NCBI GenBank assembly: GCA_003151615.1
Contig: PLXZ01000004.1
Span: 173,285-237,284, forward strand
Length of the DNA stretch: 64,000 nucleotides
Origin: Candidatus Tayloriibacteriota bacterium
GTDB taxonomy: Bacteria; Patescibacteriota; Minisyncoccia; Phycocordibacterales; PALSA-1337
Direction: 5' to 3'
In this document: piece by piece, positions 8,078 through 56,591 of the stretch
Numbering within the stretch: position 1 is the stretch's first letter
How the letters are laid out: the number at the start of each line of letters is the position of its first letter
The notes under the pieces: generated by a model
The model's input: only the letters and a program-made list of their open reading frames with translations
The model's database searches: none
What the model was told of the DNA's origin: nothing
Made by a program: the position numbers and the translations under genes

Positions 8078-8500
8078 TTATTTTTTCGGCAAAAGGCCTT
8101 CGGGGGGAACGGGAGGAGCGTAGTGCCATGAAATAATGTCGTTTCCGTAGAGCGTTACCGACAGAAGTCCCGTGGCGATTGCAATGTCACGCACTCCGAT
8201 GGAGTCGAGGCCTACTGACGCGACGATGCCGCACATATGCAAAAAGAGAAGTGCCGCGACGGGTCGGACCCAGATTCCGAAAACCAGAAGCAAAGCCATG
8301 AGTACTTCAAAAATGCCATTGCACGTCACGAGCGTCAGGGAGGACAAACCCGTTACGTGAACGGCGATGGTGGGGATGTAAGATATCCATGCGCCCGGGT
8401 CGAGTATCTGCGACGCGCCGAACCATACGAATACTCCGGAAAGGCCGAGACGCAGAACGATTGGTGCGAAAAAGGGAAGTTGTTTCATATTTTTATTCAT
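8078..8500 (-). CDS. DoxX family membrane protein
   Basis: APIVLRLGLSGVFVWFGASQILDP... four-TM architecture and the DoxX signature (lLRl.lG..f...G..Kl.dp). Confidence 0.6.
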   Translation of the reverse strand: MNKNMKQLPFFAPIVLRLGLSGVFVWFGASQILDPGAWISYIPTIAVHVTGLSSLTLVTCNGIFEVLMALLLVFGIWVRPVAALLFLHMCGIVASVGLDSIGVRDIAIATGLLSVTLYGNDIISWHYAPPVPPEGLLPKK

Positions 8501-8508
8501 TGCATTAT

Positions 8509-8904
8509 TTACTGAACAAGTGTGCCGATTTTAAAAGTGGCAAGTTCCGCGGCCGGCCGGGCTTGTCCGCCGTGCTGGCCGTTGAATGCCGCTGATCCGT
8601 CCGTGCCGCACAGGCTTAGTATCGCTTGCGGACCGCCGGGATGCTCGTTGATCCATGATGTCACGTCATAAACGTCGCCGTTGATCGCCGTCCAGCAGCT
8701 CGCGCCGTTGTTGTGTTGGGCAACTTGAGCGAGGGTGTAGGTGTCGGGGCCTTGAGTCGTCGAAGTGGAAATCGCGGTTGATGTTGAAGTGGTTGTCGTG
8801 GCCGGCCGGGCCGTTGATGGTCCGTTCTGCACAATTGCCGTAATGCCAGCCGTGGCAACGACGAGAATTCCGAGAGTCAGCGCCAGTTTTTTATTGGTTG
8901 TCAT
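8509..8904 (-). CDS. Cytochrome b5-like heme-binding domain protein with N-terminal TM and Thr/Ser-rich linker
   Basis: YTLAQVAQHNNGASCWTAINGDVYDVTSWINEHPGGPQAILSLCGTDGSAAF contains the HPGG heme-ligand motif and the fold pattern of cyt-b5/steroid-binding domains. Confidence 0.6.
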   Translation of the reverse strand: MTTNKKLALTLGILVVATAGITAIVQNGPSTARPATTTTSTSTAISTSTTQGPDTYTLAQVAQHNNGASCWTAINGDVYDVTSWINEHPGGPQAILSLCGTDGSAAFNGQHGGQARPAAELATFKIGTLVQ

Positions 8905-9222
8905 GGGGTTTGTTACATCAAAGTATGTAACTTTATTTCCGTTGAATCCTACTTGAACGCAAACGATAGAAGCACGATGGTCAAAGCGTTAAGAACCACC
9001 AATGCCAAAACCATTTGCCATTTTACCGGAAATGGATTCTGTAAAATATAGACTGTATAGATTATTGCAACGATCGCCGCACCAATGAAGTTTCCTTTTA
9101 TCATGTTCTCATTATATCACATCAAGTCCTATCTTGCTTCTTATGTTGAACGAAGTTAAAACCAATTTACGCAAATAAAAAAGGGCAAGGACTTTCATCC
9201 TTGCCCTCTTGAAAACGCAAAT

Positions 9223-10050
9223 TCAAACTTCAGTTTTCTTGTATTTGTTGATGATGAGGACTTTTGACGTGCACGTCTCGGGGTTAATCAATTTGACCGC
9301 CAACGAAACACGGTTTTCTTCGTTGAGCGCAAACCAGTATGCCGTTTTGATTTCCTCGATGTCGCCTTGAAGCGGGACAAGGATCGGTTCACCGATAAAC
9401 GACGGCAGGGGATTGCCGTCTCCGGTGTAGGTTGTAACCATGCGGCCAAAACCTGCAGGAATGTCTTCATAGCTGTAAAACAGCCGTTCGCAACTCTCGT
9501 CAGCGTTTGATTTGCGAAGGACTGACATATGGAAACCGGGCTTTTTCCCTGCCTCGGCCGTAATAATTGCACTGATCCGAGGGGTGTAATTTGGTTTGTC
9601 GGGCTCGTATATATGGGTCGAAAGACCCTGGGCAAAACGCGAGAAGTTATCGTGCCCATTTATTTCGGCAATGATCTGGTCAGTCTGTTTGCCGTTGCTC
9701 ACCACATGCTGTCCGAAAATATAATCCATGGCATTGTAGATGATGAGACTCGTGTCTCCGGCTTTCGCGGGGTCTGCCGGTTCGGTGAAGATTCTTGGTC
9801 CCACGGCGCTGAAAATACGATTTCGGCTGTTCGCGCTTCTTCCCATTATCCAGTAAATCTGAACCAAATTTCCAGACTCGTCCCGGCCGATGACGATTCC
9901 GCGTCCCGGATACGGGTTTTCAAAGAGCCGCTTCAGATTTTTCGCGGCTTCCGTCGATTGATCAATTTCCATAATTTCCTCCATTTTCAACGATCGCGCC
10001 ACTGGTTGCTCGGTATATTGAGCGGGTTTATCGCGGATGCAGTGACACAT
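9223..10050 (-). CDS. purO: IMP cyclohydrolase, archaeal type (PurO)
   Basis: YPGRGIVIGRDESGNLVQIYWIMGRSANSRNR, HVVSNGKQTDQI and NYTPRISAIIT align with conserved blocks of Methanocaldococcus PurO (YLGRILAVGR..., VVSNGSHTD, NTPRIAAAI). True start may be an internal Met (9984 or 9972). Confidence 0.6.
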   Translation of the reverse strand: MCHCIRDKPAQYTEQPVARSLKMEEIMEIDQSTEAAKNLKRLFENPYPGRGIVIGRDESGNLVQIYWIMGRSANSRNRIFSAVGPRIFTEPADPAKAGDTSLIIYNAMDYIFGQHVVSNGKQTDQIIAEINGHDNFSRFAQGLSTHIYEPDKPNYTPRISAIITAEAGKKPGFHMSVLRKSNADESCERLFYSYEDIPAGFGRMVTTYTGDGNPLPSFIGEPILVPLQGDIEEIKTAYWFALNEENRVSLAVKLINPETCTSKVLIINKYKKTEV

Positions 10051-10068
10051 CCTTACTTGCTATATCAA

Positions 10069-10100
10069 AATCTATTCTTTTTCAGGGAAAAGTCAATAAG
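10069..10100 (-). promoter_or_regulatory. Sigma70-like promoter TTGACT-N17-TAGATT with TTCC-N8-GAA inverted repeat in the spacer (family D, copy 1)
   Basis: Reverse complement reads cttaTTGACTtttccctgaaaaagaaTAGATT, ~20 nt upstream of the purO ORF. The same element recurs at 12361 and 15420. Confidence 0.5.
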
Positions 10101-10167
10101 GGCCATTGACAACATTAGATAAATACTTTATCTTGCCAACAGATAAACAAAAATTTACGAGGTATTT

Positions 10168-10820: not shown

Positions 10821-11750
10821 ATGAAACACATTCTGCGTTCACAACAGTTCGACAGGCCTGCCTTGGAAAAACTGTTTTCGGCGACCGATGAGCTGAGCGC
10901 CCTCTATGAAACTCCCGCTGGCAAGCGCGATATACGGAAACTCTGCGAAGGGAAGCTGTTGTTTGCCGTTTTCTACGAGCCTTCCACGCGAACCCGTTTT
11001 TCCTTTTGTTCGGCCGCGCAACATCTTGGCATGATGACTCTGCAAACCGAAAATGCCAAGGAATTTTCCTCGGCCATAAAAGGCGAGACTCTTGAAGACA
11101 GCATAAACGCCCTATGCCAGTATGATCCGGACATCATTGTCTTGCGTCATCATGAAACGGGAGGTGCCGATCGCGCCGCGGCCGTTGTTGACCGTTTCGA
11201 TCATAATGTTTCCATCATCAATGCCGGCGACGGCAAAGGCCAGCATCCGACCCAGGCGCTTCTTGATCTCTATACTATCAAGCGCGAGCTCGGCCGGATT
11301 GACGACATTACCGTGACCGTCACCGGCGATTTGGCCAACGGACGGACTGTCAAATCCCTCGTCTATCTGCTCGCAAAATTCAAAGGCGTCAAATTTGTCT
11401 TTCTCTCGCCGGAGAATTTAAAAATGGAGGAGGGAATTATCGGACACCTTCGCGAGCATGAAGTTCCGTTTCGGGAAGCGCGCAACCTCGAAGACGCCCT
11501 GACCGATACCGACGTCGCCTACTGGACCCGTATACAGACCGAACGCGGCAGTTCCAATACGACGCTTGATCTCACGCTCGGCGTGCCGCAGATGAAATTC
11601 ATGAAGGAAGGTTCAATTGTCCTTCACCCGCTTCCAAGGGTCAACGAAATCGCCAAGGAAGTTGACGGCGACAAACGTGCGGCCTATTTTCGGCAAGTCC
11701 GAAACGGCATGCTCATCCGCATGTCGCTTCTGCGGGAACTGTGCGGATAA
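10821..11750 (+). CDS. pyrB: Aspartate carbamoyltransferase catalytic subunit
   Basis: STRTR carbamoyl-phosphate motif, HPTQ, and HPLPRVNEI (ATCase-type HPLPR.DEI) motifs. 309 aa. Confidence 0.85.
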   Translation: MKHILRSQQFDRPALEKLFSATDELSALYETPAGKRDIRKLCEGKLLFAVFYEPSTRTRFSFCSAAQHLGMMTLQTENAKEFSSAIKGETLEDSINALCQYDPDIIVLRHHETGGADRAAAVVDRFDHNVSIINAGDGKGQHPTQALLDLYTIKRELGRIDDITVTVTGDLANGRTVKSLVYLLAKFKGVKFVFLSPENLKMEEGIIGHLREHEVPFREARNLEDALTDTDVAYWTRIQTERGSSNTTLDLTLGVPQMKFMKEGSIVLHPLPRVNEIAKEVDGDKRAAYFRQVRNGMLIRMSLLRELCG

Positions 11751-19042: not shown

Positions 19043-19626
19043 TTAACCAACTTGTCTGATCCAATCTCGGATAAACATGCCCACTCGTTCAATATCAGTC
19101 GGTGCTAGTTCACCACTATGCATGATAATATTTCTTGATTTTTCCAAAGTTTCAATTATTTGCTTTGCCCACTCCACTTTACCAACGTGCACTTCAAAAA
19201 ATTTCCAATTTTCAGGCTTAGCCATGATAGAGATGAGGTCTCCAAATTCAGTGTAATAAATCATTGAATCACCCCTAGCGGTAAGCCAGCGAACATCTTT
19301 TTCTGACTTTTTTCTATTCTCTGCATTAGTCCTGATTTCTTTCTTTACACATAAATCCCACCAATTTTCACCTTTTTCTTCAAGAAGTTTTTTAGCAATA
19401 AACTCTCTTACTGAATTTTCAAAGGAACAGATAGCAGTATACACAACTGCCATTCGTCTCGATTTTACAACGAATTCCTCGTCCATAAGCGGAAGACCTA
19501 GTCGTTTAGATGTTTCTGCTTCCCATACTTCGGAGAAATCACCCTTTGACTTTCTACCAGCCTTATCTAAAGCCTCTTCGGTTAAAAGCCCCCTAAAGGT
19601 AAAAGAATATAATCGGTTAGAATCCA
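19043..19626 (-). CDS. HEPN-domain protein (C-terminal Rx4H motif)
   Basis: C-terminus ...EKSRNIIMHSGELAPTDIERV carries the R-x4-H HEPN signature. Internal Met MDSNRLY chosen because the upstream partner ORF ends at 19629 (abutting genes). Confidence 0.45.
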
Positions 19627-19628
19627 TA

Positions 19629-20279
19629 TTAAAACAGATGTTTTTTAAGGCTTTTAAATAGTGCGTCGTATACAGCGGCATCCCTTGATTCCGGTAGGTG
19701 AATTTGGATATTGTAATGCAATTCTGTCTTACGTAGTTTCCCACCGACACTATCCTCGTCTGTGTCTTCCTGTGCGGCAGGTGGAGTCTCTTTTGCGGAC
19801 TCAGGCTTTTGATTGTCATTCTTCTCTTTACCGCCCTGAACTTTTTTTGCTGTATTACTCCACTCAGCATAAGCGGCAAGAGTCACGAATGTATTAGCCA
19901 TTAAATGCAAAACCTTATCTGAAATTTTACCTTGAGTTAATGTTCTAAGTTTGTTTTTGACTTCTGACTGCGTAAGTTCGTTTGCCTTTGTGTTAACAGC
20001 GAATAAATCCCCATATGCTACAGTAATCGCATTTGCCAAGACTTGTTTAGATTGAGATTGATCTAAAAAGTTGAAATATATTTCTGTTGGTACAGCATTG
20101 GCATCTAGAAACCCCAATCCTTTAAGTAGTCCTATGTACAGACGGTCATTTGTACTTTTAAACTCAAGACTTTCTAGGAATTTCTGCGTAAAGGTCTCAG
20201 GCGCTTTCGCCGTAATTAGACTGTTAAAAAATGACTCAAGATTTTTTGTCGTAACCAAATATGAGGGTGTAAGTGCCAT
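19629..20279 (-). CDS. Hypothetical protein, upstream partner of the HEPN gene
   Basis: Start at MALTPSYLVTTKNLESFF..., stop abuts the HEPN start. Two-gene operon. Confidence 0.4.
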   Translation of the reverse strand: MALTPSYLVTTKNLESFFNSLITAKAPETFTQKFLESLEFKSTNDRLYIGLLKGLGFLDANAVPTEIYFNFLDQSQSKQVLANAITVAYGDLFAVNTKANELTQSEVKNKLRTLTQGKISDKVLHLMANTFVTLAAYAEWSNTAKKVQGGKEKNDNQKPESAKETPPAAQEDTDEDSVGGKLRKTELHYNIQIHLPESRDAAVYDALFKSLKKHLF

Positions 20280-23863: not shown

Positions 23864-24472
23864 CTACGTCGGCAAGGTCTTGTTTTTTGAAAGCCAATTT
23901 TCCATACGATTTTCAAATGTCATAAGCTCCCACTGGGCTAAACTCGCGTTCTCATTTTTCGCTTTCTTCTTGCAAATATCCATGGCCTTTATGTACTCTT
24001 TTTCTGTAAATTCACCTTTTGTCCATTTTGGGCCTTCCCAAGCAATTTTATTTAGAATAATTGAATCTATCACGCAGTGCAGAGGTTCATCTTTTTTGAA
24101 ATTAAACACCCATAGGTATTTAAGATAGAGATTGAGAAGTTTTTGTACTCTGCCGAAAGTGATTTTGTTGTTATTCAAAATGTCGATATATACCGATTTG
24201 TTTATTTTTTGTTGAAAGTCATTGAGGAGTTCAATATACTCTTCGTCCGTATTAGGAATTTTTTCTGAAAATTTTTCAAGCTGTTCCGATAAATAATCTC
24301 TAAATTTCATCCGCTTATTTGGGTCGGCGTTCAGTTTGTAAGTGGAGTAGCCTCTTATTAACGCCGCTTGGAAAACCAAAGAAGAGATTTCTTTTTTGGC
24401 GAATTCTATTTTTTTGAATTCTATTGATTGCATACAAAAAGCCCACCACAGGTAGAGGCCTAAGCCTCTCAT
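23864..24472 (-). CDS. Hypothetical protein
   Basis: 202-aa ORF, Lys-rich. Confidence 0.4.
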   Translation of the reverse strand: MRGLGLYLWWAFCMQSIEFKKIEFAKKEISSLVFQAALIRGYSTYKLNADPNKRMKFRDYLSEQLEKFSEKIPNTDEEYIELLNDFQQKINKSVYIDILNNNKITFGRVQKLLNLYLKYLWVFNFKKDEPLHCVIDSIILNKIAWEGPKWTKGEFTEKEYIKAMDICKKKAKNENASLAQWELMTFENRMENWLSKNKTLPT

Positions 24473-24752
24473 ATCAGTTTCCCAATATGGCGAGTTAAGC
24501 GACCCTATGATGGGTTTTTTATGCTTAACTCGACTTTCTTCACCATGCCATTGGATTACTCAAATGGTTTAGGCTACTTCTAACATATTCAGTTGTGGCC
24601 TAATCATACAATAAACGCCAATATCTGCAATGGTGATTAAATCAGAGCAAGCGCAGGACAAAGTTCTTTTTGTGAGGTAGTATATTTCTATGCGGACACA
24701 GGTTTACAGCTGTTAGAGCCGAGTTTTAAGCGAAAGAGCCACCTATAAAGAT

Positions 24753-26837: not shown

Positions 26838-28457
26838 ATGAAAAAGAAGCAAGTAAATGAAAAACCATTAGAAGACATAAAATACGCCGCCAGTTATATC
26901 AGAGTGTCGACCCAAGACCAGCTCAACGGGCTTTCAATTGAGGTTCAAGAAAAACTGTGCCAACGAAGAGCCGAAGAAGCAGGGTACAAAGTATCTGAAG
27001 TCCTTGACGACGGAGGTATTAGCGGACACAACGACAATCGCCCAGGATTGCACCGCTTGAAAGAATTGATTACGACAAAAAAGATAACGGCTATAGTCGC
27101 TCTATCGTCCGAACGCCTTTTCCGCAACACCCGCTCGCATCTCGACTTTATGGAGTGCGTCTTTACTTACGGTGTTCATCTCCTTTACGTCAATGGGGCA
27201 ACACCTGAAAACAACGCAAGTTCAAGGATGCAGGACACAGTTCTTGCAAGTATGAATCAGTTTTATAGAGATCAAATATCTGACAAAGTGAAAGGTGTCC
27301 TCTATGAAAAGGCCAAAATGGGCTATTACCCCTCTCGACCTCCAGCAGGATATATGAATGTTCCAAACCCAGACAAGAATGCAGAACGCATGGCGCAAAA
27401 GCTCGTAGTGCCAGACCCAAACACAGCTCCATTCATCAAAGAAATGTTTACGCTCTACGCCACAGGAAATTTCAACGTCTACGACCTTTGCGACATTATG
27501 TACGAAAAGGGCTTGCGAAGCAGAAAGGATGGCAAAATATCGCCAAGTAGACTTCACGATATGCTGAGAAGCCGTTTTTACATCGGTGAGCTTGTATGGG
27601 GGCCAATCAGCAACATAGAGGGGAAACACGAGCCTATCATTGATGAAGCGGCCTTTAATCAAGTGCAAATGATTTTAACAGCACGCAATCACCACGCCTG
27701 TCGGCGGCGGAAATACCAATGGCTTTTAAACGGCTATCTCTACTGCTACAAGCACGACAACCGTTATACGGCCGAATGGCACACAATCGGAAATAGACGC
27801 ATTGCATATTACCATTGCGCCAACAAAAGCGGTTGCGGCAAGTATTCCGAACAAGTAGACCTAGAAGCTAAAGTTGCCGAAAAATTCAAGGACTTGGAGT
27901 TTAGTCCTGCGTTTATTAAAGAGGTGATCGCCGAAGCAAAGGCGACATTCAACGAACAGCGAAAGGGCTACGACAAAAAGAAACAAGGCCTCATCAATCA
28001 GCGTACCGCTTTCGACCGACGGCGCAAGGTTATGGAAGACAAACTTTTCGACGGCGTAATCGGCGATGACGACTTCAAAAAGAACCGAGCCGAAGTTATG
28101 GCTGAAATACAACGGATTGAGGTGAAGCTATCGGACTTGGAAAAAAGCAGGGAGGTCAGAGTTGATGAAGCGGAGCAGATACTTCGTTTTACGAAGAATA
28201 TTTACGACGCATATCAAAAGGCATCGCCAGATCTCAAGCGGCACTATTTAGGCTTCTTTTGGTCACGCTTTGAGGTAAGTGATAAGGTTATAATAACGTC
28301 TACTCCCTCGCTTCTTTTCGCTGAACTTTTGAAGCTAAAACACGCTATTTTTAGAAGGTCAGAAACGCAAAAACACAAAGGACTGAATAGATCTAACAAA
28401 GTTATATTAGGAGGTCTACGGCTCCGCATGTTGAACGAAGTCAGAACCTGCATTTAG
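26838..28457 (+). CDS. Large serine recombinase (resolvase N-domain + recombinase domain + Zn-ribbon + coiled coil)
   Basis: AASYIRVSTQDQ (catalytic Ser), DGGISGHNDNRPGL, recombinase-domain block, C...C.C...CGK zinc ribbon. 539 aa. The last 30 nt equal repeat family C. Confidence 0.8.
   Translation: MKKKQVNEKPLEDIKYAASYIRVSTQDQLNGLSIEVQEKLCQRRAEEAGYKVSEVLDDGGISGHNDNRPGLHRLKELITTKKITAIVALSSERLFRNTRSHLDFMECVFTYGVHLLYVNGATPENNASSRMQDTVLASMNQFYRDQISDKVKGVLYEKAKMGYYPSRPPAGYMNVPNPDKNAERMAQKLVVPDPNTAPFIKEMFTLYATGNFNVYDLCDIMYEKGLRSRKDGKISPSRLHDMLRSRFYIGELVWGPISNIEGKHEPIIDEAAFNQVQMILTARNHHACRRRKYQWLLNGYLYCYKHDNRYTAEWHTIGNRRIAYYHCANKSGCGKYSEQVDLEAKVAEKFKDLEFSPAFIKEVIAEAKATFNEQRKGYDKKKQGLINQRTAFDRRRKVMEDKLFDGVIGDDDFKKNRAEVMAEIQRIEVKLSDLEKSREVRVDEAEQILRFTKNIYDAYQKASPDLKRHYLGFFWSRFEVSDKVIITSTPSLLFAELLKLKHAIFRRSETQKHKGLNRSNKVILGGLRLRMLNEVRTCI
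28421..28450. repeat. Family C repeat copy 3, coincident with the 3' end of the serine recombinase ORF
   Basis: gctccgcatgttgaacgaagtcagaacctg, 28/30 identical to 13166-13195. Confidence 0.6.
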
Positions 28458-28534: not shown

Positions 28535-29620
28535 ATGAGCAGTAATGCACTACTATCTTTATCAAAGACAAATAAAGTTTCGGAGCAAAATAAATTTGTG
28601 GCAGCTCAACCGATGCCAACAATTGATATTGAAAACAGGCGATATATCGGTAGCAAAGCAAAACTTTTAGATTGGATTTTTGATCACATAAAAAAAGAAT
28701 GCAAAGGAAATAGCTTCGCTGATATTTTTGCCGGTACAGGCGTTGTTTCCGCTAGGGCAGCGAGATCATTCAACAAGATTATCTTGAACGATATTTTGCA
28801 TTCGAACTTTGCTTCATATCAGGGATTTTTTGCGCAGGAAAAATATGATAGGGAAAAAATATTTAATTTTGTAGCACATTACAATTCTCTAGATGCTAAG
28901 GATATCAAGCATACATTTTTTTCAAAAGCATTTGGCGGAAAGTATTTCAATGTACCTGCGGCAAAACTTATAGGATACATTCGCGAAGACTTAAATAAGA
29001 GAAAATCAGAATTAAATAACAAAGAGTATCATATTTTGTTAACATCTTTGCTATATTCAGCTGACAAAATTGCGAATACCGTAGGACATTACGAGGCATA
29101 TTTTAAGAAAAGTATTTCAGATCGTAAATTTATTTTTAGACTAATCGAACCTTTGATCAAAGCGGGTAGAGTTTCTATTCACAGAGAGGACGCCAATGAA
29201 TTGGCAAAGAGCTTGAAAGCTGACATTGTTTACATTGATCCGCCTTATAATTCAAGACAGTATAGTCGCTTCTACCATGTCCTAGAAACACTCGCTCTTT
29301 GGGACAACCCCAAGCTTTTTGGTGTTGCACTTAAGAGGCCAGAGGAGAATATGAGCGAATATTGCAGAAACAATGCGGTCAATGCATTCGCTGATCTAAT
29401 TGGTAAACTAAATGCTAAGTATATTGTTGTTTCCTACAATAATACCTATAACTCAAAAAGCTCATCGTCGAGAAATAAGATCGAGCTTGAAGATATAAAG
29501 AGCATTTTGACCAGTAAGGGTAAGACAAAGATTTTCAAAAAAAGTCACCAATTCTTTAACGCAGGTAAGACAGACTTCAACGATCATCAGGAATGGCTTT
29601 TTATCACGGAAGTATTATGA
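28535..29620 (+). CDS. DNA N6-adenine methyltransferase, D12/Dam class (first of two)
   Basis: RYIGSKAKLLDWI (D12 class motif I) and VYIDPPYNSRQY (DPPY catalytic motif). Confidence 0.75.
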   Translation: MSSNALLSLSKTNKVSEQNKFVAAQPMPTIDIENRRYIGSKAKLLDWIFDHIKKECKGNSFADIFAGTGVVSARAARSFNKIILNDILHSNFASYQGFFAQEKYDREKIFNFVAHYNSLDAKDIKHTFFSKAFGGKYFNVPAAKLIGYIREDLNKRKSELNNKEYHILLTSLLYSADKIANTVGHYEAYFKKSISDRKFIFRLIEPLIKAGRVSIHREDANELAKSLKADIVYIDPPYNSRQYSRFYHVLETLALWDNPKLFGVALKRPEENMSEYCRNNAVNAFADLIGKLNAKYIVVSYNNTYNSKSSSSRNKIELEDIKSILTSKGKTKIFKKSHQFFNAGKTDFNDHQEWLFITEVL

Positions 29621-30525
29621 AATCAGACACATCGATTAAAAGATCACCGTTTTTTTATGTCGGTGATAAGTTCAAACTAATAAAAGAGATAAAGCAATAT
29701 TTTCCAGAGAAAATAGATTCCTTTGCCGAACCTTTTTTGGGTGGAGGGAGTGTTTTTTTAAATGTGGATGCGAAAAAGCATTTTGTTAATGATATTGATA
29801 TTAATGTTATAAATCTTCACAAGTATTTAGCTAACTCCTCAAAAAAAGAAAAGGAGTTCTTCGGAAAAATTAAGAAAATCGTGCAAAGGTATAATCTCTC
29901 CCGATCATTTTTTGAGGACGTAGTCCCTCTTTCTTTGAGAAAAACATGGCTGAAGACATATTATGCCCACTTCAACAGAGACGGCTATAACAAAATGAAG
30001 AGTGAGTACAACAAGGTAAAAAAAGATACTCTAATTTTGTATCTGTTGCTCATATACGGTTTCAATAGGATGCTGAGGTTCAATAAGAAAGGCGAATTTA
30101 ATATTCCTGTTGGAAACGTTGATTTTAATCGGAATGTCGTGAATGCGCTTCATGATTATTTTGAAGCTATGAAAAGCAAAGATGTTGTTTTTTCTAGCAA
30201 GGATTTTAAGAAATTTATTTTAGACCTAAAGCTAAATAAAAATGACTTTGTGTATGTTGATCCACCATATTTAATCTCTGCAAGTGAGTACAACAAGCTT
30301 TGGAATGAAGATTTAGATCGAGAACTAATGAGTACTTTGGATATGTTGGATAAAAAAGACATAAGATTCGCTCTCTCCAATGTCACGGCATACAATGGTA
30401 AAAAGAACGAAAAATTGATATCTTGGATGAGTAAATACAAGGTTCATCCAATAAAGAGTAATTACATCAGCTATCACAACAATAAGAAAAAGCAAATAAA
30501 CGAAGTCCTGATCACAAATTATTAA
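29593..30525 (+). CDS. DNA N6-adenine methyltransferase, D12/Dam class (second)
   Basis: FFYVGDKFKLIKEI... and VYVDPPYLISASEY. Overlaps the first MTase by 28 nt. True start may be M at 29617. Confidence 0.7.
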   Translation: MAFYHGSIMKSDTSIKRSPFFYVGDKFKLIKEIKQYFPEKIDSFAEPFLGGGSVFLNVDAKKHFVNDIDINVINLHKYLANSSKKEKEFFGKIKKIVQRYNLSRSFFEDVVPLSLRKTWLKTYYAHFNRDGYNKMKSEYNKVKKDTLILYLLLIYGFNRMLRFNKKGEFNIPVGNVDFNRNVVNALHDYFEAMKSKDVVFSSKDFKKFILDLKLNKNDFVYVDPPYLISASEYNKLWNEDLDRELMSTLDMLDKKDIRFALSNVTAYNGKKNEKLISWMSKYKVHPIKSNYISYHNNKKKQINEVLITNY

Positions 30526-30526
30526 C

Positions 30527-32128
30527 ATGCCCACCTCACGAAACAACGAATATAAACCATTACTTTTTACGACGACTGTCAGAAATCCAAGTCGCCTAAA
30601 AGCGTTGTTGAGTGTACTTCACAAATTTAATAGCCAAGAGTTAACGAATGATCTCTCTGTGAAGATAATGGGTGAGTTAATTAGGTATGGATTATACAGA
30701 CCAACAAGAGCCGTGTCGTCAGAAATCGAAAAGAAGTGGGGATCAAAAAGAATAACAGATAACTCAACAATCGGTCTTCAGCTCCTTGCAGATGATGAGG
30801 TCGCCACGTTGCTCGACAAGAACCCACAAGCTCATAAAGAGGCAGGTTTTGATCGAGGTTGGCCATCACGATTTGCGACAGTGTTCGATTTAGCTAAGGA
30901 ACTTGGGTTTGTTTTTTATACAGTTGGTGAGAAGATTGAATTTTCCGAGATCGGGTCAAAGCTTGCAAACTCGATTGAAATAAAGATTCAAGAGGATAAT
31001 ATTTTAGTAGAAGATACTCACCCTGAATTTGAGCAGCAAGCTTTTCTGCATGCACTTGCCAAGTATCAAAGAAAAAATCCTTTCGTACGTGTTTTGAACG
31101 ATAATGCCCCGCTTATACTTTTGCTTGAGGTTATTCAGAAGATAAATGCTGACAACAATTTTAATGCATCTGGTATTTCTAAATTGGAGCTCCCGCTTTT
31201 TATTTACTGGAAGAATAATGATTCCGAAGCGCTTTATCAGAGAATAAAGAAGCTTCGTAATGATTTTGGCTATTCACCTACATGGGAAACGATATGTGAT
31301 ATTTGCAGAAACGAAATAATGCAGGGTGAGGACTCCACTAGGAAAGATAAATCAATCATGCTCGAGTATCCCGATGAATATATAAGGAAGATGCGTCTTA
31401 CCGGACTCATCTCTTTGAGAGGTGGTGGTAGATTCGTTGATATAAATAAAAATGAGCAAGAGAAGGTAGATTATATCCTCAAGGTATATTCAACTTATAA
31501 TAAATATCCCACCGAGCGAGAATATTTTAATTATGTCTCTACGATCGACGAGAACCTTGTCACTGTCGGCGCCAAGGCTGTAACGATTGAAGAGAAAGAT
31601 CGTTATCTTGAGAAATGGGTCAATGAATATTCATGGCCCAAAATTCGCGAGGAAATGACGAATCTTGCTGATAAGAAGCTTACCAAAGACGACGTTCTGA
31701 AATATCTTTCGAATCCAATAAGATTGGAGTTTCTTACTGCAATAGCAATAAAATCAAAGTTTCCGAATATTAAGGTCATCGCAAACTATCCCGTAGATGA
31801 CGAGGGTTTGCCTACATCGACAGCAGCCGGAGTCAACGATATGGGCGACATTGAGTGTTACGAAAATCATAATGGTGTTCTCGTTGAGGTGACAATGTCC
31901 GAGGGCCGATCGCAGACTATGATGGAAGTGTGGCCGATCACGCGTCATCTTGAGAAATTCAGCAAGAAGACAGAGGACGCCATGTGTTATTTTGTTGCCC
32001 CAAGCCTGTACACCGATTCAATAAGGCAAATAGACTATTCAAAACAACAGTACAATATTTCGATTGTACCAAAGACAATAAAAGATTTTTTGAATCACCT
32101 AGAAAGTACTCAAACACTCTATGTTTAA
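30527..32128 (+). CDS. Putative restriction endonuclease, large (533 aa), likely Type IIS (AlwI/MlyI/PleI-family-like) partner of the two MTases
   Basis: Start 2 nt after the second MTase stop. The two-Dam-like-MTase-plus-large-REase arrangement is characteristic of Type IIS systems. C-terminal D..E.YE...VLVEVT resembles a PD-(D/E)xK core. Family assignment is inference. Confidence 0.45.
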   Translation: MPTSRNNEYKPLLFTTTVRNPSRLKALLSVLHKFNSQELTNDLSVKIMGELIRYGLYRPTRAVSSEIEKKWGSKRITDNSTIGLQLLADDEVATLLDKNPQAHKEAGFDRGWPSRFATVFDLAKELGFVFYTVGEKIEFSEIGSKLANSIEIKIQEDNILVEDTHPEFEQQAFLHALAKYQRKNPFVRVLNDNAPLILLLEVIQKINADNNFNASGISKLELPLFIYWKNNDSEALYQRIKKLRNDFGYSPTWETICDICRNEIMQGEDSTRKDKSIMLEYPDEYIRKMRLTGLISLRGGGRFVDINKNEQEKVDYILKVYSTYNKYPTEREYFNYVSTIDENLVTVGAKAVTIEEKDRYLEKWVNEYSWPKIREEMTNLADKKLTKDDVLKYLSNPIRLEFLTAIAIKSKFPNIKVIANYPVDDEGLPTSTAAGVNDMGDIECYENHNGVLVEVTMSEGRSQTMMEVWPITRHLEKFSKKTEDAMCYFVAPSLYTDSIRQIDYSKQQYNISIVPKTIKDFLNHLESTQTLYV

Positions 32129-38308: not shown

Positions 38309-38615
38309 ATACCCACTTTATTCCTCGTTAAGAAGAAAGTAAAGAAAGAAAGCGAGTAACAATACACTCTTTTGAGTGTATGTGGACTGATTTCAAATAG
38401 ATGGTATCATGTTGGTTACAATTGAATATTAAAGTAGCCTAAACCCTCGAGTAATCGGTGGCATGGTGAAAAGTCCCGTCGGAGCCAAAGAACCCATCAT
38501 ATGGGGTCGCTCTGACGGGCCGTATCGGGAAACTGATATGAGCAACTTCGGTTGCTACCCATGTGGTGGGCTTTTTGCTACCACTCATGGAATATTTACG
38601 CCCTAAAATATTCGC

Positions 38616-42668: not shown

Positions 42669-42997
42669 AATCATATAATCCGAATGATTCAGGAAAAAAG
42701 TTTCTGGTTGATGAATGTCAAAAAATAAGTATAACAACCTATATTCGACAAGCTAAAGCAAAGCTCAAGAATGCACTACTCATGAGCACACTTGAGATGG
42801 ATAGCAAGGCCATAGAATTGACCCCCTCAAAGACCTCATTCCATGGCGAAAGATATTGGTTCAAATGCCCTAAATGCAGTAAGCGCGCCGGCACATTATT
42901 CGTACATCCACTGAATCATGAAATTGGATGTAGAAAATGCCTTAACCTTGAGTACAGAAGCAGAAGATATAAAGGCATGATTGAGGAGTCATTTTAA
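42665..42997 (+). CDS. Hypothetical zinc-ribbon protein
   Basis: CPKCSKR...CRKC, 110 aa. Start overlaps the upstream stop (ATGA). Confidence 0.4.
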   Translation: MKSYNPNDSGKKFLVDECQKISITTYIRQAKAKLKNALLMSTLEMDSKAIELTPSKTSFHGERYWFKCPKCSKRAGTLFVHPLNHEIGCRKCLNLEYRSRRYKGMIEESF

Positions 42998-43056
42998 GCC
43001 CGTAGACTTATCTTGTATTAGCGGTATTGTATGTGTTAAGACAACTAACAAAAATA

Positions 43057-44759
43057 AAATGAAAAACGAAGCGCAAATAATAAATTACGATGTGTATCTC
43101 CGTAAATCGAGTGAGGCGGAAGATAAACAGATTCAGTCCATCGATGACCAGAGGCGAGAACTGAATGAATATGCAAATAAGAATAATCTTCACATAGTAG
43201 GTGAGTTTGAGGAATCGCAGAGTGCACATCATCCAGGGCGGCCGATTTTTAACAAAGTCATGAAAAGGATCGAGAAGGGAATATCGACTGGATTACTAGT
43301 TTGGCACGCCAACAGAACCTCGAGAAATCCAGTTGATAGTGGAACAATAATAAACCTTATCGATGAAAAGAAACTGATACATGTTAGGACGCCGTCACAT
43401 ATTTACGGTAATACTTCCACGGAGAAAATGATGCTTGCACTTGAGTGTATGATGGCTAAAAAAGATTCGGACGATAAAAGCGAAGCGGTAAAGAGAGGTC
43501 TACGCGGCAGATATAGAAAGGGACTTCCAAATGGCGTGGCACCTATCGGATTCCTAAATGATATGTCAGTTGAAAAAGGTAATCGGGGATGGCTTGTGGA
43601 CGCCGAAAAGCTCCCTCTTATTGGCCAACTTCTTCAGCTCTGTCTTACCGGAAGATATTCAACCAGAGATCTCCTAAATATCGCAAATGAGGATATGGGA
43701 CTCCGCACCCAACTCCGCAAAAAACAGGGAGGTAAAAAACTTGTGCTCTCATATCTGACAGATGTCATCCTTAAGGGAGAGGTATACGCCGGATTTTTCT
43801 ACACCGCTGATGGTGAGAGACATGATTTGGCTGAAAGCATCCCAAGACTAATTACAGAAGAACAACACTGGCAAATTAGAAAGATATTAGGTGATAGAAA
43901 CAGGCCTCGAGCGTCAAAAAATAAAATGACCTTCGCGTATACGGGACCGACAAAGTGTGGAGGGTGCGAGGGATCAATCACTGCTGAACACAAGTACCAG
44001 CTTATTTGCGCCTGTAAATTAAAGTTTGTTTATCTTAATAAGACACATTGTCCGGGGTGCGGAGTTTCAATAAAAAACATAGAAAAGCCCACCTATCTTC
44101 ATTACATTTATTACCACTGCACTAGGAAGAAAGATTTACTTTGCCGTGAGGGTAGTGTGCAGGAATTATACATAGATAATCATCTAGCAACATACTTCAA
44201 AGAAAATTTCAAAATCTCGAAAGCGCTCCATGAATGGTGTATCGAAAATATCGAAGCCCTTGATGCTGGCGATGCTAAAAACGGATCCGAAAAGAAAATA
44301 TCTTTGGAAGCGACCATCGCTAAAAAGCAAAATGAATACAAAGAGCTTGTTCTCATGAAGACCCGCGGACTTATCAGTGATAGCGATTTTGTAGAGCTTA
44401 AGACGAGCCAAAAAGCCGAAATTGAGGCCTTACAGCGGACTTTGAGCAATACGCCAAATAAGGACCAAACATCAAGCGTTAAAGCGCGTAGAGCCTTTAC
44501 GCTCGCATTAGGAATTGAAGAAGTATTCAAGAACGGAACACCTCAAGAGAAAAAAGAGGTGTTATCAGAGATTGGTTCGAACCTAACTTTAAAAGACAAA
44601 AAGCTCAATGTTTACAACACAGGAATCTATGAACGGATCATAAACGGACTACTTAGGGCGAAAGCAGAAAATCCTCGGTTCGAACCTGAATATATCTTAG
44701 ATACATCAAGTCAGAATAAAGATTTTATGCTCGCACGACCAACTCTGCTCCGGGAGTAG
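43057..44759 (+). CDS. Large serine recombinase (second copy, distinct sequence)
   Basis: YDVYLRKSSEAEDKQIQSIDDQRRELNEY (resolvase catalytic domain with Ser), recombinase domain, CGGCEGS...C zinc ribbon. Stop codon lies inside the 3' end of the adjacent tRNA gene. Confidence 0.75.
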
Positions 44760-45091
44760 GGATCGAACCTACGACCAATCGCTTACATCGCTCCTCTTGT
44801 TGCCAAAAGGGATGGACTATATCATTTCCATACATTGTCAATCTGATTTGACGAATGATTAGGGACGAGGGGCTTCGCGGGCTGTTTTGAAATTTTTGTA
44901 TTTCATAACGCCAGCTACTCTTTAAAAAGATAGTCTCTACACCTTCCCATTTTTTGAATGGGCTCGGCTCGGGATTGCCCGCAGTTTTGTGCTGCGGGTT
45001 TCCCCGATTTCTCCTCGTTATTCGACCAGGCTTTTACCTGGAAGCTGCAAGTTGTTTACAGGCGACTGCTCTACCGCTGAGCTATCCCGGA
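44748..45091 (-). tRNA. tRNA gene (probably tRNA-Asn GUU) interrupted by a group I intron in the anticodon loop
   Basis: 5' exon TCCGGGATAGCTCAGCGGTAGAGCAGTCGCCTGT (acceptor, D-arm GCTC/GAGC, anticodon stem GTCGC). 3' exon TAAGCGATTGGTCGTAGGTTCGATCCCTACTCCCGGAG (anticodon stem GCGAT, T-arm GTAGG-TTCGATC-CCTAC, 7-bp acceptor complement). Exons are separated by ~270 nt. Confidence 0.6.
44786..45057 (-). ncRNA. Group I self-splicing intron within the tRNA
   Basis: P-like ACTGCGGGCAA, Q-like AACCCGCAGC, R-like GTAGAGACTAT and S-like GATATAGTCC elements in order. P1 possible between exon CTGT and GCAG (terminal U.G). Omega-G precedes the 3' exon. Confidence 0.55.
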
Positions 45092-45842: not shown

Positions 45843-46712
45843 TTATTGCCGAGTGGCCGGCAAATAAGGTTTCGCGTCCGTTTCGCCTTTTCCTTCGGGA
45901 ATGACTTTTTCTATGATCAGTTTGCCGCTCTCCCAGCGGGCTTCGGTTATTTTAACCCGGATTTTCGCGCCGTTTTTCTCGGCAAAAAAATATGCCGTCG
46001 GCCATTCCCGGTAGGCCTGAATTTTTCGAAAATTGAGATAAGGATCGTCGGCGAAATTTACCAGTCCGTCGTTTTTTAAAATTTTTTTGGTCAGGGTCGC
46101 CGCGGCATGGTCCTGCGGTTTTTCGACTATCCGGCCATCTATCCAACCGGGCAGAGTTTCAGCAAGAAGTTTTCCGCCTTCGCGTGCAATGGTCTCTTCG
46201 AATACTCCGTACGCCGGCCATTCGTCGACGGTTATTTCCTTTTGCACCACAATCGGGCCGTGGTCCATCAGTTCATCGATGCGCATGATGGTGACGCCGG
46301 TTTTTTTTGCGTCGTCAAGCATGGCCGACTGAAGAGGGGATGCGCCTCGATAGAGGGGAAGAAGGGACGGATGAACGTTGAGGGTTTTGTGTTTCGGAAT
46401 ATCCAAAATTGCCTGCGGAATTATTTTTCCGTATGCCGCGACGACAAAAGTTTCGATGTTTCCGCCGGCGTTTTTTGTCGCACACGTTTCCTTCAATTTT
46501 TCCGCAAAATCCGCATCGAGCTTTGCCGGATCAAGTACTGGAATGCCGCGTTTCATTCCCCAGGCTTTAACCGGCGTCGGAGTCAATACCAGCCCGCGAC
46601 CGACTGGTTTGTCGGGAGTGGTGACTATGAGCGACGGCGGCATGCCGGCTTTTTCAAGCTCGTCGAGAACATAGATTGAAAATTGCGCGCTGCCGAAAAA
46701 AGCATAATTCAT
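45843..46712 (-). CDS. fmt: Methionyl-tRNA formyltransferase
   Basis: N-terminal FFGSAQFSIYVLDEL, HPSLLPLYRGASPLQSAML (formyl-transferase SLLP motif). Start taken at MNYAFFG, overlapping the def stop. Confidence 0.8.
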   Translation of the reverse strand: MNYAFFGSAQFSIYVLDELEKAGMPPSLIVTTPDKPVGRGLVLTPTPVKAWGMKRGIPVLDPAKLDADFAEKLKETCATKNAGGNIETFVVAAYGKIIPQAILDIPKHKTLNVHPSLLPLYRGASPLQSAMLDDAKKTGVTIMRIDELMDHGPIVVQKEITVDEWPAYGVFEETIAREGGKLLAETLPGWIDGRIVEKPQDHAAATLTKKILKNDGLVNFADDPYLNFRKIQAYREWPTAYFFAEKNGAKIRVKITEARWESGKLIIEKVIPEGKGETDAKPYLPATRQ

Positions 46713-46713
46713 T

Positions 46714-47283
46714 TTATTTTTCATGCGATTTTTCATTTTGATTCTCGTCTTCCGGCGGCATATCACGGACGTCATGGGCCTTGTCAATGAAGAGAATGCC
46801 GTCGAGATGGTCGGTTTCGTGCTGGAAAACCTGGGCGAGCAGGCCGCTTGCTCCGCGCAGGACGCGCTTGCCGTTTTCGTCATAGCCGCGAATGGTTGTT
46901 TTTTGCGATCGTTTTACCTTTCCGTAAAGCCATCGCACGGACAGGCAACCCTCTTCGACATCGTGTTTTTCGCGCGACAATTTTGTGATTTCAGGATTGA
47001 TGAATACGATGTCGCCTCCGGCGTATTTTTCATCCGCAGCGGAAAGCACCGCGCCCGACACTGCAAAAATACGCAACGGTTGGCCAATCTGGGGAGCCGC
47101 GATGGCCACGCCGTCGCTCTGTCCAGCCAATGCGCTTTTCATGTCCGCGATAATTTTTTTTATTTTCGGCGAAGCGATGTCGGCCACCGGCACGGTCTGG
47201 GCAAGCTCGCGCAGAACAGGGTCGCCGTTCTGGACGATAAGGACTTCGGGGGGTTTTGCTTCTTTTTTTGCAGGCATGATCAC
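46714..47283 (-). CDS. def: Peptide deformylase
   Basis: GVAIAAPQIG, EGCLSV, HETDHLDG motifs (the three Def signature motifs). Confidence 0.85.
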   Translation of the reverse strand: MIMPAKKEAKPPEVLIVQNGDPVLRELAQTVPVADIASPKIKKIIADMKSALAGQSDGVAIAAPQIGQPLRIFAVSGAVLSAADEKYAGGDIVFINPEITKLSREKHDVEEGCLSVRWLYGKVKRSQKTTIRGYDENGKRVLRGASGLLAQVFQHETDHLDGILFIDKAHDVRDMPPEDENQNEKSHEK

Positions 47284-54833: not shown

Positions 54834-56444
54834 TTACAAATCCCTGAACGTCTCTATTTTCGCGCCAATTTTATTGAGGCGTTCGGCAAGATCTTCGTAG
54901 CCGCGGTTGATGTTGTAGACGTTGCGCAAAACGGAAACGCCTTCGGCGGCGAGCATGGCGATCAGGATGATGACGGATGGGCGGAGGGCAGGAGGGCAGA
55001 CAACTTCGGTCGCCTTTAATTTCGTGGGGCCGGTGACATAAAAACGGTGCGGATCGGCGAGGATGGTTTCGGCGCGGAGTTTGTCCAGTTCCTTGTAATA
55101 AATAGCGCGCTCTTCGTAGGTCCAGTCGTGGATAAAGGTCTGACCTTCGGCCTGTGTTCCGATGACGGCGAAAAAAGGAAGATTGTCCATATTAATGCCG
55201 GGATATGGTTGCGCGTGAATTTTTTCTTCGAGCGCGACAAGTTTCGACGGTTTTGTGCGGATGTCGACGAGATTTGTTTCCCCATTTTCAGCCTTGTATC
55301 GCTTGACGATGGAATATTTGAAGCCCATTTTTTCGAGTTTCAAAAGTTCAAGTTCCAGAAAATCAATCGGACAGCGCTCGACGGTGATTTCCGATTTCGT
55401 GACGATGGCTGCGGCGAGGAGTGACATGGCTTCAATAGGATCCTCGGACAGGAAATATTCGACTGGCATGTTTATATCCGCGACGCCGTGGACCGTTAGT
55501 CGTGATGTTCCGATACCTTCGATTTTGACGCCGAGCTTTTGTAAGTAAAAACAAACGTCCTGTACCTGATAATTGGCAGATGCGAATTTTATCACCGTTG
55601 TTCCGGGTACGCCCGCTGCGGCAATGAGAACCGTTTCGGTGACGGTGTCGCCGGCTTCATAGAGGATGATTTCGTTTGGTCGCGAATCGCCGAAAATTTT
55701 CCCGAACGCATTTGCGCGGGAAGTTGATCTCGAGACTTCGTAATATTTCGAAGTCGTTTCAATGCCGATGCCGAGCTTTTCCAGTGCATAGAAGTAAGGC
55801 TTTACCGTCCGCGAACCGAGACGGCAACCGCCAGCCTGCGGAAATTTGAATGAATTGAGCTGATGGACAAGTCCGCCGATCATGATGATGCAACTTCGCG
55901 TTTTAGCCGCGGATTCATAATTGATTTTGTTGAGAGTGAATTTTGCAGGAGGTTTAATTTCGAGGTCAAAACGGTCCTTGCCCGCGCCGCTTTTGTCGGT
56001 GCTTTCTTTCCATGAAATTTTAACGCCGATAGATTCGAGAACTTCGATGAGGCGGTTTACTTCTTCGATTCGCGGCACATTTCGCACGGTCGTCACTCCT
56101 TTGTTCAAAAGGGAAGCGCAGAGAATACCGACGGCACCGTTTTTAGAGGTGCGCACCGCGATTCTGCCGGAAAGCTTCCGTCCGCCGGTGATTCTGAAAT
56201 TGACCGTGCCTCCGCGCGCGATCGAAACAATCTCATGATCGAGGGCCGCGCTGATTTTCGATAGTGTTTCCGTCGACAGGTTCTGCTCGCCCTTTTCGAT
56301 GCGCGCCACGACCGACTGCGTCGTGCCGATTTTTTTCGCCAACGCCTCCTGGCTCATGCCGCGGTCCTCCCGCAGCCGCGTGATCAGATTGCCGATGTGA
56401 GTCAGTGCCTTGTCTGCGGTATGCGCGGTGTCTGTCATGTTCAT
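54834..56444 (-). CDS. murA: UDP-N-acetylglucosamine 1-carboxyvinyltransferase fused to an N-terminal XRE-type HTH domain
   Basis: HTH: LITRLREDRGMSQEALAKKIGTTQSVVARIEKGEQNLSTETL. MurA/EPSP-synthase fold blocks follow (RITGGRKLSGRIAVRTSKNGAVGILCASLL..., C-terminal LRPSVIILIAMLAAEGVSVLRNVYNINRGYE). Start may be 56528. Confidence 0.65.
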   Translation of the reverse strand: MNMTDTAHTADKALTHIGNLITRLREDRGMSQEALAKKIGTTQSVVARIEKGEQNLSTETLSKISAALDHEIVSIARGGTVNFRITGGRKLSGRIAVRTSKNGAVGILCASLLNKGVTTVRNVPRIEEVNRLIEVLESIGVKISWKESTDKSGAGKDRFDLEIKPPAKFTLNKINYESAAKTRSCIIMIGGLVHQLNSFKFPQAGGCRLGSRTVKPYFYALEKLGIGIETTSKYYEVSRSTSRANAFGKIFGDSRPNEIILYEAGDTVTETVLIAAAGVPGTTVIKFASANYQVQDVCFYLQKLGVKIEGIGTSRLTVHGVADINMPVEYFLSEDPIEAMSLLAAAIVTKSEITVERCPIDFLELELLKLEKMGFKYSIVKRYKAENGETNLVDIRTKPSKLVALEEKIHAQPYPGINMDNLPFFAVIGTQAEGQTFIHDWTYEERAIYYKELDKLRAETILADPHRFYVTGPTKLKATEVVCPPALRPSVIILIAMLAAEGVSVLRNVYNINRGYEDLAERLNKIGAKIETFRDL

Positions 56445-56591
56445 GTTGGATAATATAGCATATACGCTATATATGTAAAATTTCAAAATTGTGGATAACT
56501 GGCGGTGGAATCTCTCAATAGGCGGCATTTTTTATTCTTTCTTTAGAACATTTTGAATGTTTCTCTATCGCCGCTTTGCTATGGTTGGCGG

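Follow-up and report, generated by a model that had tools for sequence, protein, structure and literature searches.

The 64,000-nucleotide stretch of DNA analyzed here (the window) carries on its minus strand a gene for a PurO protein that, to judge from its sequence, is a regular member of an already described bacterial PurO clade. In the reading that we favor, and to which we assign a probability of roughly 0.75, the protein would be an IMP cyclohydrolase (EC 3.5.4.10) whose Ntn-hydrolase-like fold has no N-terminal nucleophile, and it would carry out the final reaction of purine nucleotide synthesis, the cyclization of FAICAR to IMP. The FAICAR would be supplied by an AICAR formyltransferase that is encoded separately, elsewhere in the genome. 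In the same reading the PurO gene would be native and transcribed on its own, the genes of the pathway would be dispersed around the genome, and the nearby pyrB gene would be an incidental neighbor.

A preliminary description, made from the sequence alone, had placed a PurO gene at positions 9223-10050, and a gene is indeed present there. The listed open reading frame (ORF) on the minus strand runs uninterrupted over 9223..10050, amounts to 275 aa from its first ATG, and includes in its translation all three of the blocks that had been quoted, namely NPYPGRGIVIGRDESGNLVQIYWIMGRSANSRNR, VVSNGKQTDQI and NYTPRISAII. The exact protein (P0001) is on record in NCBI/ENA, from a metagenomic contig of 562,931 bp, k141_1990104 of ENA record ERZ27254241, with a public gene call that sets the coding sequence at 9223..9984 (minus strand, 253 aa). 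Direct reading of the 5' sequence pointed to a slightly shorter product. The ATG at 9972, which gives 249 aa, is the probable start, because a Shine-Dalgarno-like GGAGG (9978..9982, minus strand) lies 5 nt upstream of it and because the homologues measure 240-251 aa; no comparably placed ribosome-binding site was seen for the ATGs at 10050 and 9984. The product is thus likely to be 249-253 aa long, with its start at 9972 or 9984, and since translation would then not begin at 10050, the 5'-most 66-78 nt of the interval 9223-10050 are probably untranslated. Upstream of the gene, a consensus scan returned a sigma-70-like promoter match (10069..10096, minus strand; TTGACT, a 16-nt spacer and TAGATT, 9/12 matches). 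It should be noted that this is weak evidence, as the scan of the region gave 5 sites where 3.1 are expected by chance. A terminator scan returned an intrinsic-terminator-like hairpin (9179..9210, minus strand) that begins 13 nt past the stop codon and consists of a 14-bp stem with 6 GC pairs and a T-rich tail. The promoter-like match upstream, combined with the terminator-like hairpin after the stop codon, suggests that PurO forms a monocistronic unit. Two further ORFs that overlap the gene (9529-10122 on the plus strand and 9288-9659 on the minus strand) are regarded as shadows of the PurO frame; the antisense one recurs over PurO in 16 related loci.

The assignment to the PurO family was borne out both by profile search and by structure prediction. 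The protein matches Pfam PF07826 (IMP_cyclohyd) with 155.6 bits against a cutoff of 28.1 (E 1.6e-45) over profile positions 1-189 of 192, so that the profile search proposed in the preliminary description returned a full-length domain match and not an unrelated family. An AlphaFold2 model (pLDDT 84.1, pTM 0.87) had as its top Foldseek matches the PurO structures 1kuu, 2ntm and 2ntk (probability 1.00, target-normalised TM 0.76-0.79), followed by proteasome-type Ntn folds (proteasome subunits) with TM values below 0.42. The protein is accordingly predicted by the model to adopt, across its whole length, the Ntn-hydrolase-like alpha-beta-beta-alpha fold of MTH1020/PurO. A sequence search of the PDB retrieved only the PurO of M. 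thermautotrophicus (2NTK, 1KUU), with E values of about 1e-4 and for the N-terminal half only.

To compare active sites we aligned 256 bacterial and 120 archaeal sequences and considered those columns in which at least 90% of the sequences in both groups have the same residue. The window protein keeps 24 of 24 such positions, which in the 253-aa numbering are Y25, G27, R28, G33, Y44, R49, S50, R54, Y83, N97, G98, T101, E127, D129, T134, P135, R136, I137 and, towards the C-terminus, T185, Y186, G190, P192, F196 and W217. These take in every conserved Arg, Glu and Tyr, and it is Arg, Glu and Tyr side chains that have been proposed as the catalytic groups of PurO (PMC6797443). The comparison of substrate contacts is narrower, as it comprises the four residues named by Cruz et al. 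out of the 13-14 in the M. thermautotrophicus structure: Ser26 is kept (as S50), while Ser24, Asn54 and Tyr56 are replaced by Gly48, Thr78 and Leu80, respectively. The same behavior was described for the bacterial proteins of Cruz et al., in which Ser26 is retained and the positions of Ser24, Asn54 and Tyr56 vary (PMC6486802). For archaeal PurO enzymes, the conversion of FAICAR to IMP has been documented by assay or complementation (PMC6797443), and we infer the same activity for the present protein; in the literature searched we found neither a bacterial PurO that had been tested biochemically nor anything specific on IMP cyclohydrolase or purH in CPR/Patescibacteria.

The genes that surround PurO in other genomes point to the same function. 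The neighbors of PurO were clustered for 89 loci, and in 64 of these the gene directly downstream, in the same orientation as PurO, encodes an AICARFT-only protein (390-420 aa, PF01808 197.8 bits). Other recurrent neighbors were purD (17 loci), purN (13), purM (11), purF (10) and guaB (9). Because of this purV/purO arrangement in 64 of the 89 loci, the bacterial PurO clade can be tied firmly to the two final steps of the purine pathway. This is consistent with the published observation that bacterial purO and purV occur together in 19 of 22 genomes, from which work an IMP cyclohydrolase function had been deduced (PMC6486802). Among the 34 closest CPR-type loci, purV was present within 10 kb of PurO in none, and no pur gene of any kind lay within 10 kb except a purD in one locus (L010). 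The sole recurrent partner of PurO in these 34 loci was an ORF on the opposite strand that shadows PurO, and it was rejected as a gene. The exceptional locus comes from a Patescibacteria MAG (JAZKDJ01) and has a complete purD (L010 4384-5754, plus strand) with GARS_N, GARS_A and GARS_C domains at a distance of 4.2 kb from PurO. The closest relatives of this purD, on CPR-type contigs (L171-L174), are themselves solitary and lie beside dnaG and rpoBC or beside unrelated genes; proteins named purD also occur in Saccharimonadales, Berkelbacteria, Sungbacteria, Roizmanbacteria and Kaiserbacteria. In CPR-type genomes purine genes thus appear de-clustered and dispersed singly, and a solitary PurO fits this usual layout, since purD is solitary there too. 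A further link was found on a 2067-bp contig (ENA ERZ1426829), where a single ORF of 333 aa (P0097) combines PurS (45.9 bits) with a PurO (136.7 bits) that is 57% identical to the window protein. This ORF is either a true PurS-PurO fusion or two adjacent genes that are read through.

Closer to the gene itself, neither an AICARFT gene nor any other pur gene was found within the 64 kb of the window or the 10 kb further upstream, which together make up about 74 kb of the 563-kb contig; the upstream 10 kb contain adk, bipA, truB and pilus genes. A Pfam search of the window also gave no PurH-type domain, and a homology search seeded with a CPR purD gave no protein from the window's contig among the 120 matches listed. 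An ORF with a Formyl_trans_N domain (45843-46883) was considered as a candidate purN and set aside as most likely fmt, the gene for Met-tRNA formyltransferase, because it comes after def and priA and shares 58% identity with the gene in the fmt position of the contig of the nearest relative (L007).

This solitary position lies at the root of the strongest alternative, according to which the rest of de novo purine synthesis is missing from the genome and PurO serves in salvage or in another non-canonical role. The enzyme would then use FAICAR or AICAR-derived compounds that a host or the environment provides, or would have a different substrate. A salvage role of this kind had been raised in the preliminary description, together with the statement that Patescibacteria usually lack de novo purine synthesis. 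The latter statement holds for the majority of these bacteria but not for all of them, as a complete de novo purine module was reported for about 32% of 399 groundwater CPR MAGs (PMC11608272). The remaining 68% or so that lack the complete module, the solitary state of PurO, with no conserved neighbor, in the window and in all 34 close CPR-type loci, and the lack of pur genes in the roughly 74 kb that were inspected all speak for an orphan. On the other hand, a solitary PurO is no proof of a missing pathway, because a purD does lie near PurO in L010, the relatives of that purD are just as solitary, proteins named purD occur in several CPR groups, and PurS shares an ORF with PurO in a close relative. 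In addition, the conserved active-site columns are intact, and FAICAR is, to our knowledge, not known as an exchanged metabolite. For a salvage role we found no positive evidence, and on balance we regard this alternative as rather unlikely. It is similarly improbable, if anything a little more so, that PurO is a true orphan across this and similar CPR genomes, with neither an AICAR formyltransferase nor the upstream pur genes. Should that be the case after all, PurO would have been retained for the salvage of externally supplied intermediates of the FAICAR/AICAR type or for another substrate, and would represent a new function of the Ntn-fold PurO scaffold in episymbiotic bacteria. We favor instead an enzyme that completes IMP synthesis, and we infer that the partner formyltransferase and the remaining pathway are encoded elsewhere in the genome.

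A second alternative would be that PurO is a decaying, non-functional remnant that was left behind when the purine pathway was lost during genome reduction. The genome looks like a reduced one of the CPR type and has no partner genes in view, as this alternative would have it. However, the reading frame is intact and of normal length for the family, all residues conserved across the two domains are kept, the structural model is confident, Shine-Dalgarno and terminator-like sites are in place, and orthologues in relatives are 59-62% identical. Decay therefore seems very doubtful to us.

The preliminary description had further called the protein archaeal-type and had considered the PurO family characteristic of archaea. 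Neither statement could be upheld. The NCBIfam equivalog models for PurO were built on archaeal proteins, and the window protein misses the cutoffs of both, with a score of 42.9 against 158.35 for TIGR01922 (purO_arch) and of 51.8 against 150 for NF003167; these models align only with its residues 47-167. Its identity to thousands of bacterial proteins is 45-62%, as opposed to about 23-26% to archaeal PurO, and the corresponding values in a joint alignment are 51-61% and 23-26%. More than 8000 bacterial homologues of about 240-250 aa were retrieved, the best among the matches listed being 50-62% identical over 86-92% of the query, with Staskawiczbacteria, Paceibacterota, Planctomycetota and Rectinemataceae among the named sources. 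An exhaustive search of 50%-identity representatives gave 2334 clusters with E values up to 1e-3. A query with archaeal PurO, for comparison, retrieved 1079 proteins of about 200 aa. When GTDB was scanned with one genome per species, PurO was found in at least 600 species genomes. The best 80 of these loci include MAGs of Patescibacteria, Taylorbacteria and Paceibacterota as well as many Lachnospiraceae and Oscillospiraceae, and also Paenibacillus, Treponema, Myxococcota, Latescibacterota and SAR324. The window protein shares two features with the bacterial members, a helix of about 24 aa at the N-terminus and an insertion of about 37 aa in the C-terminal part.

The comparison with archaeal PurO by phylogeny, which had been proposed earlier, gave the same picture. 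In a neighbor-joining tree (100 bootstraps, the archaeal sample being mostly Methanobacteriales) a long branch parts all bacterial sequences from the archaeal ones. The window protein falls among the bacterial sequences, where it groups with its two closest relatives (P0002 and P0003) at 99% bootstrap and lies loosely near other CPR sequences. Cruz et al. had recognized bacterial PurO as a distinct clade in 2019 (Genome Biol Evol, PMC6486802), their conclusion being that purO is no archaeal signature.

The idea of a recent horizontal transfer found equally little support in the composition and surroundings of the gene. PurO has a GC content of 0.493 and a GC3 of 0.575, which is at the level of the core genes mreB (0.564), rrf (0.574) and fmt (0.562) and unlike that of nearby genes for restriction-modification, recombinase and HEPN proteins (0.34-0.49). 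In the contig of the nearest relative (L007), def, fmt and hpf are located about 2 kb from PurO; in the window the same three genes are about 35 kb away in the same relative orientation. Since PurO lies near def-fmt-hpf in L007 as well, with the orientation alike, it can be placed in the conserved backbone of the lineage, and judged by sequence features the gene is native-looking in this CPR-like lineage. Hence, even though earlier literature held PurO to be an archaeal signature and all solved PurO structures are archaeal, the acquisition of an archaeal-type PurO from archaea by recent transfer can practically be dismissed on account of the scores below both archaeal cutoffs, the low identity to archaeal PurO, the bacterial N-terminal extension and C-terminal insertion, the well-supported position within the bacterial clade, the core-like GC3 and the shared placement relative to def-fmt-hpf.

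The proximity of PurO to pyrB had been taken as another hint of transfer or salvage. The pyrB gene for the catalytic chain of aspartate carbamoyltransferase is located at 10821-11750 on the plus strand (TIGR00670, 284.8 bits against a cutoff of 236.95), and its base composition is native. A functional link with PurO was considered and rejected: none of the related PurO loci that we examined has pyrB, so that the adjacency is without functional signal. The pyrB gene is isolated, without pyrI, pyrC or any further pyr gene in its vicinity, and like others in this genome it is a dispersed gene of nucleotide biosynthesis.

The window as a whole is bacterial and looks CPR-like, the CPR label being based on named relatives and gene content. 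It includes genes for MreB, RRF, PriA, an M50 protease, ProRS, MurA and a type IV pilin, and many ORFs have no Pfam match. Directly downstream of PurO (8078-8904, minus strand) we found a gene pair for a cytochrome b5-like haem-binding protein and a DoxX-family membrane protein. The former is 131 aa long, secreted or membrane-anchored, and has a Thr-rich linker; such a redox-type pair is unexpected for a reduced genome. A MurA-like protein is encoded by a 564-aa ORF (54834-56528, minus strand) with an EPSP_synthase fold at residues 114-551 and a Cro/C1-type HTH at residues 45-97, which is an unusual fusion or possibly the result of a mis-extended start.

A variable region of the window, at about 13000-45200, separates PurO from def-fmt-hpf where only some 2 kb do so in L007, and it is probably inserted. 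Its GC3 of 0.34-0.49 compares with about 0.57 in core genes. It contains two large serine recombinases (26838-28457 and 42981-44759), two D12 adenine methyltransferases with an AlwI-type endonuclease (28535-32128), a Swt1-like HEPN protein (19043-19879), a DnaJ-domain protein and many ORFs without family. The region also has the LOOT RNA motif (RF03000, gathering score 46.4) in two full-length copies of opposite orientation, at 38436-38556 on the plus strand and at 24454-24575 on the minus strand, with 84.3 and 82.4 bits, respectively. ARAGORN in its default mode detected no tRNA in the window, and in its intron-aware mode it detected a tRNA-Asn(GTT) gene (44747-45091, minus strand) whose anticodon loop is split by a group I intron of 272 nt (44793-45067; Rfam RF00028, 52.1 bits). 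The 3' end of this tRNA gene overlaps the end of the serine recombinase ORF 42981-44759, for which reason the tRNA gene may be an integration site.

What follows for PurO is mainly a matter of correct annotation, as the gene is an ordinary one and has little significance beyond this. The present data confirm that PurO is not an archaeal signature, and they extend its bacterial clade into CPR/Patescibacteria. Purine genes in these bacteria appear as dispersed singles and not as operons, which calls for caution with reduced genomes, where an isolated gene does not equal an isolated function. The organism may be one of the minority of CPR bacteria that can make IMP.

Among the known systems for this step, the IMPCH domain of PurH (PurH2/PurJ) shares with PurO the conversion of FAICAR to IMP but has an MGS-like fold that is unrelated to it in structure and sequence, so that the two are analogues and not homologues. 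Archaeal PurO, as known from M. jannaschii and from M. thermautotrophicus (MTH1020; PDB 1KUU, 2NTK, 2NTL and 2NTM), belongs to the same Pfam family and shares with the window protein the predicted Ntn-hydrolase-like fold and the 24 conserved positions with all conserved Arg, Glu and Tyr residues, and the reaction is presumably alike. It differs in that it is only about 200 aa long, starts at the first beta-strand (MYLGR...) and lacks both the helix of 24 aa at the N-terminus and the insertion of about 37 aa in the C-terminal part; in archaea it is often partnered with the formate-dependent PurP. The closest match is the bacterial clade of Cruz et al., whose 2019 survey did not include CPR. Its members, which NCBI names IMP cyclohydrolase in Staskawiczbacteria, Paceibacterota, Planctomycetota and others, agree with the window protein in length (about 240-250 aa), in identity across the whole protein (45-62%), in the N-terminal helix and C-terminal insertion, and, as far as the four named contacts go, in the retention of Ser26 with replacement of Ser24 and Tyr56, and they form one clade with it in the tree. 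The difference lies in the arrangement of the genes: in Firmicutes and many other bacteria purO stands directly upstream of the AICARFT-only purV, often within a pur cluster, whereas the PurO of the window, like that of other CPR-type genomes, is solitary and, by its flanking signals, apparently monocistronic.
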